A DNA stretch of 36,593 nucleotides from Candidatus Limnocylindrales bacterium (GCA_038259505.1 JBBSOS010000001.1:1-36593); one strand, 5' to 3'. Numbered from the stretch's first letter, positions 11,716 through 20,034 are shown. Numbers and translations are program-made. Notes: generated from the letters alone by a model not told the origin.

Positions 11716-11777
11716 GGTAACCGTTCGCACGGCGCGGCAACGTTACGGAAAGTTAATCGCCGCTCGTCAATGGGGGC

Positions 11778-11806
11778 TTGAGTCGGCGGTTCCCCTCGGG
11801 TAGACT
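11778..11806 (+). promoter_or_regulatory. Candidate sigma-A type promoter (TTGAGT - 17 nt - TAGACT)
   Basis: The -35-like TTGAGT sits at 11778-11783 and the -10-like TAGACT at 11801-11806 with a 17-nt spacer. It lies in an AT-richer non-coding stretch 60 nt after the PPIase stop. This is a pattern match only. Confidence 0.35.
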
Positions 11807-11812
11807 GCGATG

Positions 11813-11990
11813 CAGTGCTGCTGGTCAGCATGACTGCCCCAGGAACAAGGTCATGGGTAGGTTGGGTTAGGGTAGCCGGTGCAGCCGGCGTGATAGATGC
11901 CCTTGTAACGTGGCAGACGACCGATTCGCAAGGATCGGTTAGCCGGGACAGTGCAGACGACCCCGCTTCGGCGGGGTCGTCTCATTTCTG
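11813..11990 (+). ncRNA. Candidate small RNA (about 170-180 nt), unclassified
   Basis: It is bounded by the candidate promoter and a strong hairpin terminator. No ORF longer than 7 codons starts near the predicted 5' end. Several local hairpins are readable by eye: GCTG/CAGC at 11816-11828, CATGAC/GTCATG at 11829-11855 with a CCCC-containing loop, GCCGG/CCGGC at about 11874-11888, and ACCGAT/ATCGGT at about 11920-11939. I could not match it to SRP, 6S, 6C, RNase P, tmRNA or any riboswitch core. Confidence 0.3.
11955..11990 (+). terminator. Intrinsic terminator hairpin (possibly bidirectional)
   Basis: AGACGACCCCGC-TTCG-GCGGGGTCGTCT forms a 12-bp perfect stem with a TTCG tetraloop, followed by CATTTCTG on the plus strand. 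It lies between the plus-strand unit and the 3' end of the convergent minus-strand gene ending at 12059. Confidence 0.6.
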
Positions 11991-12058
11991 GTGATCCGAG
12001 GTAGCAAGTCCCCGCGGGTGCGCGGGTGGACGTGCCCCGGACGCCATCGACCGGAAAG

Positions 12059-12772
12059 CTACGGTGCCGGGCTCGCCAGCGACGCCGGACTCGCCAGCAG
12101 TGCCGCGCAGGGATCAGCCGCCCCCGCAATGTCGGGGATCTCGGATGCCACGATCGATGGGCTCCGTCGCGGAACGGCGGAGCCGGAGCCCGCGACGCTT
12201 GTACCGGGCACCCCTGACGCAGTCGCGCCGTCGGTCGTGAAGCTCACGGCCGTACAGGTGTCCTGGCTGCGGTCCCTGGAGCCGTGCGCACCGAAGGTGA
12301 TGATCGCGCATGCGACGACAGCGCAATCAACGGGACCCGTCTGGTTGGTGAAACTCGATGGGATGTCGAGGGTGGTCGAGAACGAACCATCTGGTGCCAT
12401 CGGCGCCTCGGCGCCCGATGGCTGACCCGTCTGGTGGACCCACTTGAACGCGGCGTAGACGCTGGGGTCCAGGTAGTAGGCAGGTGCCGGGGTGATCGGA
12501 CCGAACACCACGTAGATCCCGTTGCCGTGGTTGCCGAGCGGATCGAAGCCTGTGCCATCCACCGTCACGGTATCGGTGCCCGCCGGGAACGGACCTGCCG
12601 GTGTCACGGTCACGCTCGGTGTCACGGTCACGCTCGGTGTCACGGTCACGCTCGGTGTCGCGGCCAGTGCCTGGGTCGTGACGCCAAGGAGAGCCAGCAC
12701 CGTGATCGCAGCGGCCAGCACGCCCCCCAGGCGCGACGGCTGGGACGACCGATGTGATGAGAGCGGACGCAT
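12059..12772 (-). CDS. Secreted protein with a neocarzinostatin-like disulfide-stapled beta-sandwich domain (paralogue of the HmuT N-terminal domain)
   Basis: ATG 12772 is preceded by AAGGAG 8 nt upstream. The signal peptide is MRPLSSHRSSQPSRLGGVLAAAITVLALLGVTTQALAA, followed by a TPSVTV x3 repeat. The domain reads TDTVTVDGTGFDP...GIYVVFGP...VDCAVVACAIITFGAHGSRDRSQDTCTAVSF. The 44 codons upstream in the ORF track lack an RBS. Confidence 0.75.
   Translation of the reverse strand: MRPLSSHRSSQPSRLGGVLAAAITVLALLGVTTQALAATPSVTVTPSVTVTPSVTVTPAGPFPAGTDTVTVDGTGFDPLGNHGNGIYVVFGPITPAPAYYLDPSVYAAFKWVHQTGQPSGAEAPMAPDGSFSTTLDIPSSFTNQTGPVDCAVVACAIITFGAHGSRDRSQDTCTAVSFTTDGATASGVPGTSVAGSGSAVPRRSPSIVASEIPDIAGAADPCAALLASPASLASPAP
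12601..12660 (-). repeat. Perfect 18-nt tandem repeat x3.3 inside the CDS (encodes TPSVTV x3)
   Basis: GTGTCACGGTCACGCTCG occupies 12601-12618, 12619-12636 and 12637-12654, followed by a partial fourth copy. Confidence 0.9.
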
Positions 12773-12978
12773 CGGACAGGCTCCTTGGTTCATTCGGCCG
12801 GGTCGCATGCGGCATGGACCCGTGCAGCGGGCGATCCGGCGGCACGCCACATGCGGCGCACGCCGTCCTACACAGGCTACCCTGTCCAGCCGTTTCAAGG
12901 GCACCTGAGTGCCGCGCGGGACCGAGGTGTATCATCCGATGCGCACCAAGGATCCATCGCGAACGAAAGTGAGTCCCG

Positions 12979-13659
12979 TTGTCCCTGCTGGCCCGTGAGC
13001 CTCGCATCGCCGCCGAGCCGTTCTCCTCCCGGATCCGAGCGGGGACGCGCGTCGACCACGAGCGCACGGAGCGGTCGCCCTTCATCAGCGATCTCCTGGC
13101 GGGCCGCGTGACCCTCGATGGATTTGCAGCCATGACCGGCCAGCTGTGGTTCATCTATGACGCGCTGGAGACGGGTGCGCAGCTTCTCCGCGACGACCCG
13201 GTCGTCGGGCCGTTCCTCGATCCCAGATTGACCCGTCGCGACGCCTTGAACACGGACCTGACCGGGTTGCTGGGCCCGGGGTGGCGTGGTGGGCTGGTTG
13301 CCAGCGAGCCGACCCGTACGCATGCCGATCGCATCGCCGAGCTGGCTCGGTCGTGGCCGGCGGGCTATCTGGCTCACCACTACACCCGCTACATGGGCGA
13401 CCTGTCCGGTGGCAAGATCGTCGGCAGGACGGCCCAGCGGGTCTACGGCCTGACGGACGAGGGCGTCCGGTTCTACCGATTCGACGACATCCCCAGTGGA
13501 CGGGCCTTCAAGGATGCGTATCGGCAACTGCTCGATGATGCGCCGTGGACCGAGGCCGAGCAGCTTCGGATCATGGACGAAGCGAGCCTCAGCTTCCGGC
13601 TGACCGGCGACATGTTCGAGGCCCTCGAACACCACGGCAGCAGCTTCGTCCCTTCCTGA
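12979..13659 (+). CDS. hmuO: Heme oxygenase (biliverdin-producing, HmuO/HO-1 family)
   Basis: Motifs seen: FSSRIRAGTRVDHERTERSPFISDLL (proximal His helix), LWFIYDALE, and HHYTRYMGDLSGGKIVGR (distal-helix GDLSGG motif). The start is TTG at 12979. Confidence 0.9.
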   Translation: MSLLAREPRIAAEPFSSRIRAGTRVDHERTERSPFISDLLAGRVTLDGFAAMTGQLWFIYDALETGAQLLRDDPVVGPFLDPRLTRRDALNTDLTGLLGPGWRGGLVASEPTRTHADRIAELARSWPAGYLAHHYTRYMGDLSGGKIVGRTAQRVYGLTDEGVRFYRFDDIPSGRAFKDAYRQLLDDAPWTEAEQLRIMDEASLSFRLTGDMFEALEHHGSSFVPS

Positions 13660-13676
13660 ACAGCGTCGCTATCCCG

Positions 13677-15233
13677 ATGTCACCGGATCATGCCGTCCGT
13701 CGCTCCGCGCGCCGTATCTGGACCCTGCCGCTGCTCGCACTCGTCGTCGCGGCCAGTTCCTTCATGGCCCTGGGCAGCCCTACGGCCAAGGCCCAGACAT
13801 CTGCGACCGGCGCCGGCGGCCAGACGCTCACCGTGTCAGACGTCAGCGACCTCGACCCGGATGGCACCACCGTCACGGTGTCCGGCTCCGGGTATGACAC
13901 GGACAAGGGCGTCTACGTCTCGTTCTGCGTGGTGCCACCACCGGGCACGCTGCCGACACCCTGCGGCGGTGGCATCGACCTCACCGGAACGGGCGGTGGC
14001 ACCGTCTGGATCTCCTCACATCCGCCCATCTACGCGACCGGGCTGACGACACCATATGGACACGGCGGCACGTTCAACGTCAAGCTGACGGTGGAGGCGG
14101 CACTCGACGACACGACCGACTGCCGCGTCGTCGCGTGCGCGGTCGTGACCCGCAACGACCACACCCGGAGCGATGACCGGTCCCAGGATGTCATCGTCCC
14201 GATCACGTTCAGCGGCACCCCGCCCACGCCGGGCGCGGTGGCATCCCCGACCGCGGGGACGACCAACCCGGGCAGCAGTCCTGCGGCGTCCGGCACCATC
14301 GTGGATCCGGCCGCTGGTTGCGGGCCGTCGACCGCCCTCGTCGGAGCCAGCGCCATCGACCCCATCACGCCCACGCCCGTGCCCGTGTTGCCGGTCACGG
14401 TCCACTCCGCGGATGGCCGTGATGTGACCGTCACCGATGTCAGTCGGATCCTGCCCGTGAACCTGTACGGCTCCATCGCCGAGATCGTGTTCAGCCTGGG
14501 CCTCGGTCCCAACGTGGTCGGTCGTGATATCGCCACCACCTTTGACGCTGCGAAGGACCTGCCCCTGGTCACGACCGCAGGCACCGACCTGTCGGCCGAG
14601 GCGATCTTCGGACTCGATCCGAGCGTGGTCCTCGCGGACGACAGCATCGGGCCTCCGGAAGTGCTCCAACAACTGCGCGATGCGGGGATCCCCGTGGTCA
14701 TGCTGCCGTCGCTCCAGACGCTCGAGGGCATCACTGGCCACATCCAGTCGATCGCCGCCGCTCTCGGCGTCCCCGAGGCGGGTGAGCAGCTCATCGAGCG
14801 CTCCGACCAGCAGATCGCGGACGCGACAGCGAGCGTGGTCCCGCCGGCGACGCCCCTGTCCATCGCGTTCCTGTACATCCGGGGTTCTGCCGGCGTCTAT
14901 CTCATCACCGGTGCCGGTGCCGGCCCGGACGCGATGATCGAGTCAATCGGCGCCGTCGATGCCGGGGCCCGACTGGGCATCGAGGGCTTCAAGCCCATCA
15001 CCAGCGAGGCACTCATCGGTGCTGCCCCGGACGTGATCCTCATCCTGTCCGATAGCCTGAAGTCCGTGGGCGGTATCGACGGGCTGCTCAAGCTGCCGGG
15101 CATCGCGCAGACACCGGCCGGTGAGCACCGGCGGATCGTCGACATGGACGACGGCGTGCTGCTCAACTTCGGCACCCGCACGGGTGCTGCCATCGAGGCG
15201 CTGGCGAAGGCTGTCTACCAGCCCTGCGGCTAG
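13677..15233 (+). CDS. hmuT: Hemin ABC transporter substrate-binding protein (HmuT-type, cluster A/class III) with an extra N-terminal neocarzinostatin-like domain
   Basis: The signal peptide is MSPDHAVRRSARRIWTLPLLALVVAASSFMALGSPTAKAQ. The N-terminal domain reads LTVSDVSDLDPDGTTVTVSGSGYDTDKGVYVSFCVV...PCGGG...TDCRVVACAVVTRNDHTRSDDRSQDVIVPITF, followed by a Pro/Thr/Ala linker. The periplasmic-binding fold reads VTVTDVSRILPVNLYGSIAEIVFSLGLGPNVVGRD...DPSVVLADDS...IAFLYIRG...APDVILI. Confidence 0.88.
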   Translation: MSPDHAVRRSARRIWTLPLLALVVAASSFMALGSPTAKAQTSATGAGGQTLTVSDVSDLDPDGTTVTVSGSGYDTDKGVYVSFCVVPPPGTLPTPCGGGIDLTGTGGGTVWISSHPPIYATGLTTPYGHGGTFNVKLTVEAALDDTTDCRVVACAVVTRNDHTRSDDRSQDVIVPITFSGTPPTPGAVASPTAGTTNPGSSPAASGTIVDPAAGCGPSTALVGASAIDPITPTPVPVLPVTVHSADGRDVTVTDVSRILPVNLYGSIAEIVFSLGLGPNVVGRDIATTFDAAKDLPLVTTAGTDLSAEAIFGLDPSVVLADDSIGPPEVLQQLRDAGIPVVMLPSLQTLEGITGHIQSIAAALGVPEAGEQLIERSDQQIADATASVVPPATPLSIAFLYIRGSAGVYLITGAGAGPDAMIESIGAVDAGARLGIEGFKPITSEALIGAAPDVILILSDSLKSVGGIDGLLKLPGIAQTPAGEHRRIVDMDDGVLLNFGTRTGAAIEALAKAVYQPCG

Positions 15234-15237
15234 CCTG

Positions 15238-16272
15238 GTGACCAGGCGGGGACGGCTCACGCTGGTGGGCCTGGTGACCGCGCTCATCATCGCGTGCATC
15301 CTTGCCGCGGGTATCGGCCAACTGCACGTGCCGCCTGACCAGGTGCTGGGATCGATCCTCCACCGTGTCGGCATCGACATCCTGCCCATGCCGACCGCGC
15401 CGCGCGGCGACGACGCGCTATGGCTGGTGAGATTCCCGCGGGTCTTGCTCGCGGTCTTGGTGGGAGCCGCGCTTGGCTGCGCTGGCGCCCTGATGCAGGG
15501 CGTGTTCGGCAATCCGTTGGCCGAGCCCGGCGTCATCGGCGTCTCGTCGGGTGCCGCCATCGGCGCCTTCGCGGTCATCGTGTTCGGGATCTCGGCGCTC
15601 GGCAGCTGGACCGTGCCCGTCGCCGCGTTCCTGGGCGGACTCCTGGCCACCCTCATCGTGTACGGCCTGGCGCGCTCGGGAGGCCGCACGGAGGTGGTGA
15701 CCCTGGTCCTGGTGGGCATCGCGGTCACGGCGTTCGCGGGCGCCGTCATCGGGACGCTGACGTTCGTGTCCAGCGACGACGCCCTGCGTTCGATCGCATT
15801 CTGGAACCTGGGCAGCATGGCTCGAGCGACATGGGATGCCGTGTTCGCGGTCACGCCCTTCGTGGTCGTTGGTGTGGTCGTCGCCATCTATTACGCCCCT
15901 CACCTGGACCTGCTGTCCCTCGGCGAACGACCGGCCCGTCACCTGGGGGTGGACGTGGAACGGTTGCGCCTCGTGCTCATCGTGGTCATCGCGCTCCTCG
16001 CGGGCGCCGGCGTCGCGTTCACCGGCATCATCGCGTTCGTTGGCCTCATCGTGCCGCACCTCATCCGACTCGTCACCGGGCCGTCCCACCGCACCCTCAT
16101 CCCCGCCAGCGTCGTTGGTGGCGCACTGGTCGTGGTCGTCGGTGACCTCATCGCGCGCACGATCATCGAGAACCAGGAGCTGCCGCTGGGCGTGCTCACG
16201 GCCCTCATCGGGGCGCCGTTCTTCTTCTGGCTCATCCGGCGCACGCGGGCGCGCGCGGGAGGCTGGGCCTGA
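15238..16272 (+). CDS. hmuU: Heme/iron-complex ABC transporter permease (FecCD family)
   Basis: GTG 15238 lies 5 nt after the hmuT stop. Motifs seen: LRFPRVLLAVLVGAALGCAGALMQGVFGNPLAEPGVIGVSSGAA...LSLGERPARHLGVDVERLR...GLIVPHLIRL...PLGVLTALIGAPFFFWLI. Confidence 0.9.
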   Translation: MTRRGRLTLVGLVTALIIACILAAGIGQLHVPPDQVLGSILHRVGIDILPMPTAPRGDDALWLVRFPRVLLAVLVGAALGCAGALMQGVFGNPLAEPGVIGVSSGAAIGAFAVIVFGISALGSWTVPVAAFLGGLLATLIVYGLARSGGRTEVVTLVLVGIAVTAFAGAVIGTLTFVSSDDALRSIAFWNLGSMARATWDAVFAVTPFVVVGVVVAIYYAPHLDLLSLGERPARHLGVDVERLRLVLIVVIALLAGAGVAFTGIIAFVGLIVPHLIRLVTGPSHRTLIPASVVGGALVVVVGDLIARTIIENQELPLGVLTALIGAPFFFWLIRRTRARAGGWA

Positions 16273-17117
16273 TGGTCGACCGTCTGGCGGCTCGCTGGAG
16301 AGAGCTCGGTCGTATCGACCTGCCGGAGGCACCCCAAGTCGGCCGCACCGCTATCGAGGTCCGCGGGCTGACGGTCGAACTGGGCGGTCGCACGGTCCTG
16401 TCCGGTATCGACCTGGACATCCGGCACGGGGAGCTGCTGGCGCTCGTCGGCCCCAATGGCGCCGGCAAGTCCACCCTGTTGGCCGCGATCGCGGGGGACC
16501 TGGCTGGGGCATCCGGGACCATCCTGCTCGACGGCACGCCCCTCGCGGATTGGGGTCCCCGCCAGCTCGCGCTTCGGCGTTCGATGCTCCTCCAGCGCAT
16601 CGACATCTCGTTCGCGTTCACAGTGGGTGACGTGGTGCGCATGGGCCGCGCCCCGTGGGCGGGCACCGATGGCGAGGAGGATGATGACGCCCAGGTGGCA
16701 CACGCCATGGCGCAGACCGATGTCGTGGGCCTGACGGCCAGGGAGTTCCCTTCGCTATCGGGCGGCGAACGGGCCCGCGCAGCATTGGCCCGGGTTTTGG
16801 CACAGCACACCGGGATCCTCCTCCTCGACGAGCCCACGGCCGCGCTCGACCTGCGCCACCAGGAGCTCGTCATGGGTATCGCTCGCGAACGCGCGAACGC
16901 GGGTGTCGCGGTCGTGGTCGTCGCGCACGACCTGGGCCTGGCTGCGGCGTGGGCGGACCGGGTCGTCATCCTGGAGCGAGGCCGGATGGCCGGGGACGGC
17001 AAGCCAGGGGCCATCCTGACCGAGGATCTCCTGGGTCGCGTGTACGAGTATCCCGTGGAGATCATCCCGCATCCCCGCACAGGCCTGCCGCTCATCGTGC
17101 CGCGTCGGGATGCATGA
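16272..17117 (+). CDS. hmuV: Heme ABC transporter ATP-binding protein
   Basis: The start overlaps the hmuU stop (TGATG). Walker A is GPNGAGKST, the signature is LSGGERARAALARVL and Walker B is LLLDEPTAALD, with the C-terminal HmuV-like region. Confidence 0.92.
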   Translation: MVDRLAARWRELGRIDLPEAPQVGRTAIEVRGLTVELGGRTVLSGIDLDIRHGELLALVGPNGAGKSTLLAAIAGDLAGASGTILLDGTPLADWGPRQLALRRSMLLQRIDISFAFTVGDVVRMGRAPWAGTDGEEDDDAQVAHAMAQTDVVGLTAREFPSLSGGERARAALARVLAQHTGILLLDEPTAALDLRHQELVMGIARERANAGVAVVVVAHDLGLAAAWADRVVILERGRMAGDGKPGAILTEDLLGRVYEYPVEIIPHPRTGLPLIVPRRDA

Positions 17118-17586: not shown

Positions 17587-17662
17587 GCGCCTGTAGCTCA
17601 GCGGATAGAGCGTCTGCCTCCGGAGCAGAAGGTCGTGGGTTCGAGTCCCGCCAGGCGCGCCA
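17587..17662 (+). tRNA. tRNA-Arg (anticodon CCG), CCA encoded
   Basis: The hand fold is GCGCCTG TA GCTC AGCGGATA GAGC G TCTGC CTCCGGA GCAGA AGGTC GTGGG TTCGAGT CCCGC CAGGCGC G CCA. Confidence 0.93.
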
Positions 17663-18795: not shown

Positions 18796-20034
18796 TCAGC
18801 TCTGGGGCACCAACTCCGAGAGCGGCACCGACGCGTCCGCAAGGCGCTCCGGCGCGACCACCGCACGGGTCCGTACCAGTGCCTCCAATGGCTTGCGGAC
18901 GTCCGGGACATTGCCCAGCATCGTCCCGACGATGCCCCCCGCAGCAAGCCAGAACGCGACGAAGGCGCCGGGCTCCACTTCGCGGACGACCACCCGGTCC
19001 CACGTCGGCGGCACGCCCCATGCCTCCATGGACAGGTCGAACTGGTCGCTGTAGAGGTACGGCACACGCTCGTACGGGGTACCCGTGTCCAGCATGGATC
19101 TGGCTGCAGCCGGTCCACCGAACCAGGCCGCTGCCCAGTGGTCCAGGCGAACGTCCCGCCCGAACGTCGGGTGGCGCATGACCGCGATGTCGCCCACGGC
19201 CCAGATGCCTGGGTCGCTGGTCCGGAACATGGCATCGACCCGAACACCACCGTCGATCGTGAGACCGGCCTCGGCCGCGACCCGGGTCCGTGGCGTGGCG
19301 CCGATCCCGACCACCACGACCTGCGTGACATGGCGCCGCCCGTCGCTCGTCCTGATGGCGGTGACACGGCCTGCGTCGCCATCGATCGCCGTGGTGGTGG
19401 CACCCTGCTGCACGTCAACGCCGCGAGCGCGATGGAGATCAGCGTAGATGGCCGCGACCTCAGCACCCAGCGGGGTTCGCAGCATCGGCGACCTGCCGGT
19501 CAGGAGCGTCACGCCAGCGCCCATCTGACGCGCGCAGGCGGCGACCTCGGCGCCGATCCAGCCGCCTCCCACGACCACGATGCGGCCATGCTCCCGAATC
19601 GCTTCCTGGATGCGATCCGCGTCATGCCGGGTGCGCAGCAGCAGCACGCCCTCGAGGTCGGATCCGGGTACCTCCAGGTGGCGCGGCTCCGATCCGGTCG
19701 CAAGGAGCAGCCGATCGTAGTCGATCCGGATCCCGTCGGCGAGGACCACAGATCGGGCGGCGCGATCCAGCCGGTCCACTGTGGTCCCGGACCGCAGCTC
19801 GACGCCGATGTCCTGCCAGTCCTGGTCCTTGGGTCGGATGGCGATCTCGTCGGGCTCCTGCTCACCCCGCAGGTAGCCCTTGGACAACGGAGGGCGCTCG
19901 TAGGGCGCGTCTGGCTCGCTGCCGATGAGCAGCAGCCGACCATCGAAGCCCTCCTTTCTGAGGGTGATGGCGGCTCGTGCACCGGCCATGCCGGCGCCGA
20001 CGATGACGAAGGTCTGCCCGCGAATATCCATCAA
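18796..20034 (-). CDS. FAD-dependent pyridine nucleotide-disulfide oxidoreductase, ferredoxin/rubredoxin reductase family
   Basis: Motifs seen: FVIVGAGMAGARAA (FAD GxGxxG), YERPPLSKGYL, LLLATGSEPR, IVVVGGGWIGAEVAA (NAD GxGxxG), IWAVGDIA, and the C-terminal YSDQF reductase_C motif. Confidence 0.9.
   Translation of the reverse strand: MMDIRGQTFVIVGAGMAGARAAITLRKEGFDGRLLLIGSEPDAPYERPPLSKGYLRGEQEPDEIAIRPKDQDWQDIGVELRSGTTVDRLDRAARSVVLADGIRIDYDRLLLATGSEPRHLEVPGSDLEGVLLLRTRHDADRIQEAIREHGRIVVVGGGWIGAEVAACARQMGAGVTLLTGRSPMLRTPLGAEVAAIYADLHRARGVDVQQGATTTAIDGDAGRVTAIRTSDGRRHVTQVVVVGIGATPRTRVAAEAGLTIDGGVRVDAMFRTSDPGIWAVGDIAVMRHPTFGRDVRLDHWAAAWFGGPAAARSMLDTGTPYERVPYLYSDQFDLSMEAWGVPPTWDRVVVREVEPGAFVAFWLAAGGIVGTMLGNVPDVRKPLEALVRTRAVVAPERLADASVPLSELVPQS

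Follow-up and report, generated by a model that had tools for sequence, protein, structure and literature searches.

The window analysed here, 36,593 nt of DNA from Candidatus Limnocylindrales bacterium (GCA_038259505.1 JBBSOS010000001.1:1-36593), carries a heme-uptake locus in which the gene of a secreted protein lies divergently from those of a heme oxygenase (HmuO) and of the heme importer HmuTUV. The original prediction, made from the sequence alone, held that the secreted protein and the N-terminal part of the binding protein HmuT share one domain resembling the apoprotein of neocarzinostatin. The question raised by this locus is what such a domain is and what it does, in two copies, beside a heme importer. 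The reading favoured here, with a probability of roughly 0.6, is that both copies belong to a remote branch of the neocarzinostatin family, recruited as an extracellular part of heme acquisition in monoderm Actinomycetota and Chloroflexota, and that the module acts as an iron-regulated, surface-exposed or secreted domain, putatively heme-binding or heme-relaying, which feeds HmuT. Coordinates of open reading frames (ORFs) and translations were computed from the window, and domain families were assigned by profile search (Pfam, NCBIfam); the ORF positions given earlier agree with these translations, which contain all the peptide strings quoted at that time (Table 1).

One domain in two copies

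The secreted protein and the first ~150 mature residues of HmuT (~39-185) are 34% identical over 149 alignment columns (BLASTP, composition-adjusted, E = 2e-11), and the family profiles of the two copies match each other with an hhalign probability of 99.4% (E = 3.3e-21), which establishes the proposed sharing of one domain. The copies represent two old paralogue types, type 1 (secreted protein) and type 2 (HmuT), both found in Actinomycetota and in Chloroflexota and often within one locus. The motifs of type 1 are GFDP..GNGIYVVFGP, W111, DGSFSTTL, VDC150..xAC155 and AH163GS.DRSQDTC173; those of type 2 are G.GYD..KG(I/V)YV.FC-x11-CGGG, W.SS.PP.Y, DC..xAC and DH.R..DRSQD. The DC..xAC cysteine pair is invariant in both window copies. 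A Tyr in G(I/V)YV and a His before DRSQD, reported earlier as invariant between the two copies, are invariant or nearly so throughout both paralogue families, and are kept in the Corynebacterium protein ThiX as well. Two details differ from the earlier description: the cysteine loop of the HmuT copy reads C-x11-C, and the secreted copy is devoid of this first cysteine pair and has a second, family-conserved one instead (Cys173 and Cys222).

The secreted type-1 protein consists of a Sec-type signal peptide with an AxA cleavage site (between ...TQALA and ATP), three TPSVTV units, a domain of ~130 residues, a Pro/Ala/Ser linker and a terminal ADPCAALL motif, while no transmembrane segment, LPXTG motif or lipobox was found in the whole 237-residue translation. 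Its homologues form 29 clusters (43-80% identity), and those with a named source come from metagenome-assembled genomes (MAGs) of Chloroflexi bacteria. Cys173 (DTC) and Cys222 (DPC) are each kept in at least 90% of the 29 type-1 homologues, and in the AlphaFold2 model the predicted local distance difference test (pLDDT) reaches 74 at the tail of the protein versus ~50 in the linker. Cys173 and Cys222 probably form a disulfide, which would fasten the C-terminal tail to the domain. The three TPSVTV units at the mature N-terminus are encoded by an 18-nt tandem repeat (12599..12663, 3.6 copies, 97% matches), which is a recent local expansion, since the homologues hold one copy only.

In HmuT, a signal peptide is followed by the type-2 domain, a Pro/Ser/Thr linker and a heme-type substrate-binding core (Peripla_BP_2 match at residues 263-492, E = 2.7e-31). 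The picture of a stand-alone copy plus a fusion to HmuT is true of the window but is a lineage-specific variant: in the common arrangement the two paralogue types, anchored by a membrane segment, a sortase signal or a WxL domain, lie next to hmuT. Fusions of one or two neocarzinostatin-like (NCS-like) domains to HmuT were found in 10 loci besides the window. The single-domain form occurs in the window and in loci L001 and L006-L008, and the two-domain form in loci of Chloroflexia, Tepidiformales, Dehalococcoidia and Acidimicrobiia. The closest relative of the window locus belongs to another Candidatus Limnocylindrales MAG (L006; 84% identity over a domain of 147 residues, tblastn). In a further locus (L003, 1484..2936) an NCS-HmuT fusion is called as two overlapping genes, and two proteins (P0030, P0033) are truncated; all of these, which come from long-contig assemblies, appear to be the same fusion with frameshift errors or in the form of pseudogenes, and were not counted as separate genes.

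Fold and family membership

AlphaFold2 gave confident models of both copies, with a pLDDT of 92 in the HmuT domain and >90 across the core of the secreted one, and by their Foldseek matches these predicted structures conform to the seven-stranded immunoglobulin (Ig)-like sandwich with a hairpin-subdomain cleft that characterises the PF00960 family. In Foldseek searches of the PDB, the secreted copy matched macromomycin (2mcm, E = 3.7e-6, target-normalised TM-score 0.66), and the HmuT copy matched macromomycin (E = 2.9e-6, 0.73) and a neocarzinostatin-fold entry (2cbq, E = 2.6e-4, 0.70; both target-normalised), the latter being an engineered variant that binds testosterone hemisuccinate. Beyond 2mcm and 2cbq neither model had a PDB match at E <= 1e-3, and the remainder were generic Ig domains.

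At the sequence level the resemblance is fainter. The PF00960 profile scores 19.1 bits on the full HmuT protein and 21.3 bits on the domain alone, with a gathering threshold of 25, and does not match the secreted copy; at E <= 0.01 it recognises 19 of 39 type-2 homologues and one of 30 type-1 homologues. Distant multi-repeat relatives exceed the threshold (P0208, P0209 and P0259, with 54, 62 and 190 bits), and databases tag some relatives with PF00960, for example as 'neocarzinostatin apoprotein domain-containing protein'. The enediyne chromoprotein equivalog model NF040680 gives 27.3 and 24.9 bits on the window proteins, with partial coverage of the model and a cut-off of 86. An hhalign comparison with a single neocarzinostatin sequence was weak (E = 0.012), with the cysteine pairs and motifs in register, and a type-2 profile search of PDB sequences reached ThiX only. 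Because the direct profile-to-sequence link to neocarzinostatin is weak, the family link rests on the fold matches and on the relatives that pass PF00960. The resemblance proposed earlier thus stands at the level of the fold and is weak at that of the sequence; judged by the predicted structures, the domain belongs to the neocarzinostatin superfamily as a remote and diverged branch that falls short of the curated thresholds, and it does not qualify as an enediyne apoprotein. Of the ORFs scanned in the window, none was seen to be a polyketide or enediyne gene.

The earlier statement that the domain is neither of the HtaA nor of the NEAT type was confirmed by hidden Markov model scans. HtaA, NEAT and other heme-domain models had no match at E <= 1 on either window protein and none at E <= 0.01 in any of 69 aligned homologues, while positive controls for the HtaA model matched at 1e-44 to 1e-76. 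A tblastn search with two HtaA proteins found nothing in the window, and no structure of a conserved-region (CR, HtaA-type) or NEAT domain stood among the 50 Foldseek matches listed.

In neocarzinostatin, the Cys37-Cys47 loop and the loop after Cys93 line the chromophore cleft. Of its two cysteine pairs (Cys37-Cys47 and Cys88-Cys93), the HmuT copy has both equivalents and the secreted copy the second only. In the alignment to the neocarzinostatin sequence, the conserved Trp corresponds to Trp39, the His to an Ala, and DH...DRSQD takes the place of the loop that follows Cys93. From this alignment the neocarzinostatin cleft looks retained and re-equipped with polar, metal-competent residues.

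Association with heme uptake genes

A scan of GTDB with one genome per species found the NCS-like domain encoded in at least 593 genomes, and an exhaustive protein search returned 1398 representatives at E <= 1e-3 and 692 at E <= 1e-10 (~1400 clusters at 50% identity). Neighbouring genes were counted by tblastn with a few reference proteins in the best 80 of the at least 593 loci, which were ranked by their match to the type-2 domain and are not a random sample. A HmuT-type gene lies within 1.5 kb of the domain in 78 of these 80 loci, and in all 65 that have at least 3 kb of flank on both sides. Within 6 kb, HmuU is encoded in 54/80 loci, HmuV in 59/80, heme oxygenase in 38/80, a genuine HtaA domain in 31/80 and a WxL-like wall-binding domain in 27/80; two or more NCS-like copies are present in 60/80. 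A higher HtaA figure (57/80) was discarded because WxL and Ig portions of the reference proteins had contributed to it; the 31/80 counts the HtaA domain by itself. HtaA shows a looser linkage to HmuT than the NCS-like domain does. The association, anticipated earlier for hmuTUV and hmuO, extends well beyond the window, takes in HtaA, and comprises gene fusions and iron boxes.

The domain also occurs in larger proteins, where three to eight NCS-like repeats are joined with HtaA domains, Peripla_BP_2 or WxL, and in arrays of up to 11 repeats. Surface-display tails among the homologues comprise transmembrane segments, LPXTG and WxL, and type-1 orthologues are anchored in actinomycetes. The HtaA-WxL protein of Thermobifida (L005) has its counterpart in Thermomonospora (L026), where an NCS-like domain is joined to WxL, and a WxL-interacting peptidoglycan-binding protein is encoded beside the NCS-like-WxL gene.

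Two other arrangements were observed. In a Chloroflexi MAG (L001, 3489..7868), two genes absent from the window lie between hmuO and the secreted NCS-like gene; one encodes a protein of 250 residues with an NCS-like segment, and the other a protein of 1131 residues with fn3, two HtaA stretches, a SpaA-like domain and an NCS-like segment found by tblastn. In numerous Streptomyces loci (L027, L036, L042, L051-L053, L056, L059, L064, L066, L067, L070, L071, L073, L078 and L082-L085) the hmuT-like and NCS-like genes are transcribed divergently. Two further NCS-like copies follow, but no hmuU was found in the recovered sequence of the Streptomyces loci; the permease gene may lie elsewhere or be too diverged for detection.

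Iron boxes and promoter elements

In loci of the class Actinomycetes (L004-L085), an IdeR/DmdR1 box (TTAGGTTAGGCTAACCTAA, at most 5 mismatches, in many cases at most 3) is located ~140-250 nt upstream of the domain-coding segment. Upstream segments of 600 nt contained 78 IdeR-type boxes versus 4.0 expected, distributed over 52 of 82 loci. This agrees with a medium-confidence DmdR1 site reported for Jiangella (PMC13608877). A second box is found in Streptomyces loci ~1.7-1.9 kb downstream, ahead of further NCS-like copies.

The IdeR/DmdR1 box is absent from the Chloroflexota and Acidimicrobiia loci. Neither IdeR nor Fur boxes were found in the divergent promoter of the window, and no IdeR homologue was found in the window with an IdeR query sequence. 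Instead, an operator-like palindrome, ACAGGCTACCCTGT, is conserved upstream of hmuO in eight loci of the Limnocylindria type (L001, L003, L006, L008, L115, L148, L171 and L175); its core, AGGCTAcCCT, is similar to the middle of the IdeR/DtxR box, which is not matched in full. Palindromes of the forms CAGGCTACC(C/T)TG and TCAGG-N4-CCTGA recur upstream of hmuO, and one like them is located ahead of the HtaA/fn3 gene in L001. No promoter was returned when the region was scanned with a generic sigma-70 model; TATCAT, conserved in orthologous regions, is a candidate -10 element of the hmuO-hmuTUV operon.

The probable heme site of HmuT

The whole HmuT core of the window aligns with HmuT of Corynebacterium glutamicum (5az3; Table 1), whose heme ligands are His141, Tyr240 and Arg242 (PMC4926363). 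The window protein keeps the equivalents of Tyr240 and Arg242, whereas the axial His141 is replaced by Thr (residue 303, 14583..14585), as it is in HmuT of L003 and L006; all three ligands are kept by the neighbouring HmuT proteins in 75 of 82 related loci. The corynebacterial protein differs further in having a lipoprotein anchor where the window HmuT has the N-terminal NCS-like domain. The Thr would leave the window protein with a Tyr-only site, and a contribution of the fused domain to this site is conceivable, if speculative.

ThiX, the nearest relative in the PDB

By sequence, the nearest PDB entry is ThiX of C. glutamicum, chain M of the bcc-aa3 supercomplex (7qhm/7qho; E = 2.8e-5 with a single sequence and 5.5e-9 with a profile). 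Its soluble domain is unresolved in the cryo-electron microscopy maps of the supercomplex (PMC8795186). PF00960 matches all ThiX homologues, and the protein shares with the window domains G-x-Y, a C-x-C lid, W, DC..xAC, DH and V.F; it differs from them as a lipoprotein with a lipobox Cys, which the window proteins do not have. Thus G-x-Y, Trp, the DC..xAC pair, His and the last Phe are common to type 1, type 2 and ThiX, whereas DRSQD is confined to types 1 and 2.

The genomic context of thiX was considered as a bridge to heme and ruled out, the neighbours in both Corynebacterium loci examined being unrelated to heme or thiamine; for the same reason the name 'thiamine biosynthesis protein X' is probably a misnomer. 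The C. diphtheriae proteome papers searched do not mention ThiX. The residues which it has in common with the heme-locus domains raise the question of tetrapyrrole binding by ThiX.

Proposed mechanism and its alternatives

In the proposed mechanism the chromophore cleft would be remodelled, with a disulfide-stapled Gly-rich lid as one wall, the ordered DH...DRSQD loop after the DC..xAC staple as the other, and the invariant Trp at the floor. Such a cleft could bind hemin, the invariant His contacting the iron, the Tyr possibly helping, and Arg, Ser and Gln contacting the propionates; His is the better candidate for an axial ligand than Tyr. In the window, the anchor-less type-1 protein would capture heme outside the cell, in the manner of a hemophore, and pass it to the type-2 domain tethered on HmuT, which would load the Tyr/Arg site of the HmuT core. 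Heme would then be imported by HmuUV and degraded by HmuO with release of iron, the whole locus being repressed by a regulator acting on the conserved CAGGCTACCCTG and TCAGG-N4-CCTGA operators.

Several observations weigh against heme capture by this domain. The loci counted were those ranked best by the type-2 domain, and 31 of the 80 carry HtaA, a proven heme-binding domain type that would be able to capture heme alone. ThiX demonstrates that family members without heme linkage exist, and since Tyr, His and Trp are conserved in this protein, whose gene lies outside any heme-uptake context, these residues may serve something besides heme capture. The Tyr in particular may be structural, being situated in a core beta-strand and conserved in ThiX. 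In addition, the known heme-relay domains of Gram-positive bacteria use Tyr, not His, as axial ligand (PMC12494546). Finally, the conserved C-terminal cysteine motif could retain the secreted copy, counter to a free hemophore.

The main rival explanation is that the domain belongs to the heme machinery without binding heme, as an Ig-like stalk, spacer or docking module, which might space HtaA and HmuT through the wall, mediate contacts between the proteins of the relay, or attach to hemoproteins that serve as the source, for example cytochromes or haemoglobin-like proteins. The Ig-like fold and a Foldseek tail full of Ig domains would suit this role, as would the long tandem arrays with fn3, I-set and Big_3_5 spacer domains, the occurrence of HtaA in part of the loci (31/80), and ThiX, which acts as a subunit of a protein complex. 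Spacers, however, rarely keep an invariant polar loop (DH...DRSQD) together with a Trp and a His across two phyla, and the conserved motifs fall on the ligand-cleft segments of neocarzinostatin. Moreover, 49 of the 80 loci, the window included, have no nearby HtaA, so that the NCS-like proteins are the only extracellular candidates there, and the linkage to HmuT (78/80) is tighter than that of HtaA. We regard this explanation as unlikely, though it is the most serious of those considered.

An improbable alternative is that the cleft holds another small ligand that travels with the heme system, such as another metalloporphyrin, a corrinoid, a siderophore or a toxic aromatic compound that is sequestered at the surface, as is done by enediyne apoproteins. 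Hydrophobic aromatics are bound by the neocarzinostatin family, the engineered 2cbq binds a steroid derivative, and Peripla_BP_2/FecCD transporters also carry siderophores and B12 (weak matches to BtuF and F420 models were seen). Against this, the partner HmuT is close to that of C. glutamicum (E 9e-67), with the heme ligands conserved in related loci, a heme oxygenase gene is the direct neighbour in the window and lies at most 6 kb away in 38/80 loci, the domain is fused to HtaA heme-binding domains, and the scanned ORFs of the window include no polyketide or enediyne genes. Chance similarity between Thr/Val/Gly-rich sequences of high GC content, at which the biased composition, the sub-threshold Pfam and NCBIfam matches and the weak alignment to the neocarzinostatin sequence (E = 0.012) might hint, is excluded for practical purposes by the composition-adjusted BLASTP match, the hhalign probability, the 1398 representative proteins of the family, confident AlphaFold2 models with significant PDB matches only to the neocarzinostatin family, and cysteine pairs in register.

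If the domain does capture heme, it would provide a physiological role for the neocarzinostatin fold, which has hitherto been treated as an antibiotic carrier and a protein-engineering scaffold. On the boldest reading, in which the domain forms a heme-binding class of its own, the enediyne apoproteins would have branched off from an ancient domain of heme uptake, and ThiX of Corynebacterium would be a tetrapyrrole-binding subunit of the respiratory supercomplex, which offers a lead on this unexplained component.

Organisation of the locus and its surroundings

Positions of the features are collected in Table 1. The translation of HmuU probably starts at the GTG at 15238, directly past the hmuT stop codon. 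The other neighbours scanned in the window are hisA, a peptidyl-prolyl isomerase (PPIase) gene and housekeeping genes.

Table 1. Features of the heme-uptake locus and related elements (window coordinates unless a locus is named)
Feature	Position	Strand	Basis or remark
Small RNA, promoter-like TTGAGT-17-TAGACT	~11771..11799	+	
Small RNA, transcript	~11806..11992	+	
Small RNA, terminator hairpin	11955..11982	+	
Secreted type-1 NCS-like protein gene	12059..12772	-	237 residues from MRPLSS; ORF and translation
C-terminal ADPCAALL motif, Cys222	12095..12118	-	alignment of type-1 homologues
Type-1 NCS-like domain	12233..12619	-	residues ~52-180; AlphaFold2 core pLDDT >90; macromomycin 2mcm sole significant PDB fold match
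Divergent promoter region, secreted-protein gene versus hmuO	12773..12978		sequence and alignment with orthologous regions
Operator-like palindrome ACAGGCTACCCTGT	12872..12885		exact match unique in window
Second conserved element, TTTCAGG-N4-CCTGAG type	12893..12909		perfect palindrome in L006 and L148
TATCAT within GGTGTATCAT (candidate -10)	12930..12935	+	conserved in five orthologous regions
Heme oxygenase (HmuO-type)	12979..13659	+	PF01126, E = 9.5e-54
HmuT fusion protein	13677..15233	+	518 residues from MSPDH; same fusion in L001, L006-L008
Type-2 NCS-like domain	13791..14231	+	HmuT residues 39-185; AlphaFold2 pLDDT 92; >200 homologue clusters
HmuT substrate-binding core	14367..15230	+	phmmer versus C. 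glutamicum HmuT 5az3, E = 8.9e-67
HmuU permease	15121..16272	+	FecCD, E = 1.8e-95
HmuV ATPase	16272..17117	+	ABC_tran, E = 3.4e-30
Corynebacterium thiX	L086 7001..7558; L087 7001..7576		NCS-fold lipoprotein gene

A ferredoxin-reductase-type flavoprotein (Pyr_redox_2 and Reductase_C) is encoded at 18796..20034 on the minus strand, 1.7 kb downstream of hmuV and past a tRNA-Arg gene (17587..17662). It could be the electron source for the heme oxygenase, a link that conserved synteny in L003 does not support.

A candidate structured small RNA was found at 11771..11992 on the plus strand, flanked by the PPIase gene on one side and by the 3' end of the gene for the secreted protein on the other. Its minimum free energy is -90.9 kcal/mol (z = -4.7), and it is 87-90% identical at the nucleotide level in L006, L001 and L002. 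An alignment of 44 sequences gave 38 consensus pairs, 16 of them with compensatory double changes, and a 24-nt core is present without mismatch in 102 metagenome contigs. No Rfam family was assigned, the matches being sub-threshold and driven by the terminator. In 61 of 70 contigs the RNA lies downstream of DUF885-hisA-(PPIase) and shares the strand of these genes, and it adjoins the NCS-like gene in only 3 of 55; it follows hisA/PPIase and is therefore ruled out as a part of the heme locus.

Comparison with known systems

The enediyne apoproteins (neocarzinostatin, macromomycin, actinoxanthin, kedarcidin and C-1027; PF00960, NF040680) share with the window domain the predicted fold, the TV.V.G.G start, the Cys-loop-Cys lid (type 2), the DC..xAC staple, the aligned Trp and the final V.F strand, and are likewise secreted proteins of ~110-150 residues. 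The window domain differs in being ~20-35 residues longer, with a larger Gly/Pro lid, in the invariant DH...DRSQD loop and His, both absent from neocarzinostatin, and, for type 1, in the lack of the first disulfide. It also appears in arrays and is either anchored or joined to HmuT, HtaA or WxL, and its genes belong to heme-import loci under iron boxes, whereas those of the apoproteins belong to enediyne polyketide clusters.

The 2025 structural study of ChtA and HtaA in JBC recognises NEAT (Bacillota) and CR (Actinobacteria) as the only hemophore domains known from Gram-positive bacteria (PMC12494546). The adjacency of NCS-like and heme genes is mentioned in passing in a 2026 genome-mining paper (PMC13608877), and a 2026 mBio paper lists CwpG of Actinoplanes missouriensis, a candidate cell-wall-anchored sortase substrate with an NCS-like domain, giving no function (PMC13251363). 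In the literature searched, no functional or structural study of the NCS-like domain was found, nor any study of heme scavenging in the environmental lineages that carry it (Limnocylindria, Acidimicrobiia, Streptomyces, Actinoplanes and Thermobifida).

In their proposed role, the NCS-like domains are closest to the CR domains of HtaA, HtaB and ChtA (PF04213), which are iron-regulated, anchored or secreted beta-sandwich modules encoded near hmuTUV and relaying hemin to HmuT. Both kinds are anchored by a C-terminal transmembrane segment or, in actinomycetes, by WxL, and they share loci and even polypeptides. They have no sequence or fold match to each other: CR domains consist of 11 strands and two helices and bind hemin by a Tyr of helix alpha1 that is assisted by a His or another Tyr, whereas the NCS-like domain is without such helices and its candidate ligand is a loop His. 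The NEAT domains of the Isd systems of Bacillota (PF05031) offer an analogy only. They too are Ig-like beta-sandwiches, single or arrayed on sortase-anchored proteins, with secreted versions acting as hemophores and a relay to the lipoprotein IsdE and an ABC importer; they differ in phylum and in their YxxxY heme motif and have no sequence relationship or Pfam match to the domain described here. The locus would thus be a system of a known kind, a surface heme relay with HmuTUV and HmuO, built on a different domain. This would make the NCS-like domain a third candidate hemophore module beside NEAT and CR, and tentatively, at somewhat less than even odds, a third and structurally independent class of hemophore or relay in monoderms, with a loop His in an enediyne-type cleft and the tightest linkage to HmuT of any component in Actinomycetota and Chloroflexota of soil and freshwater.

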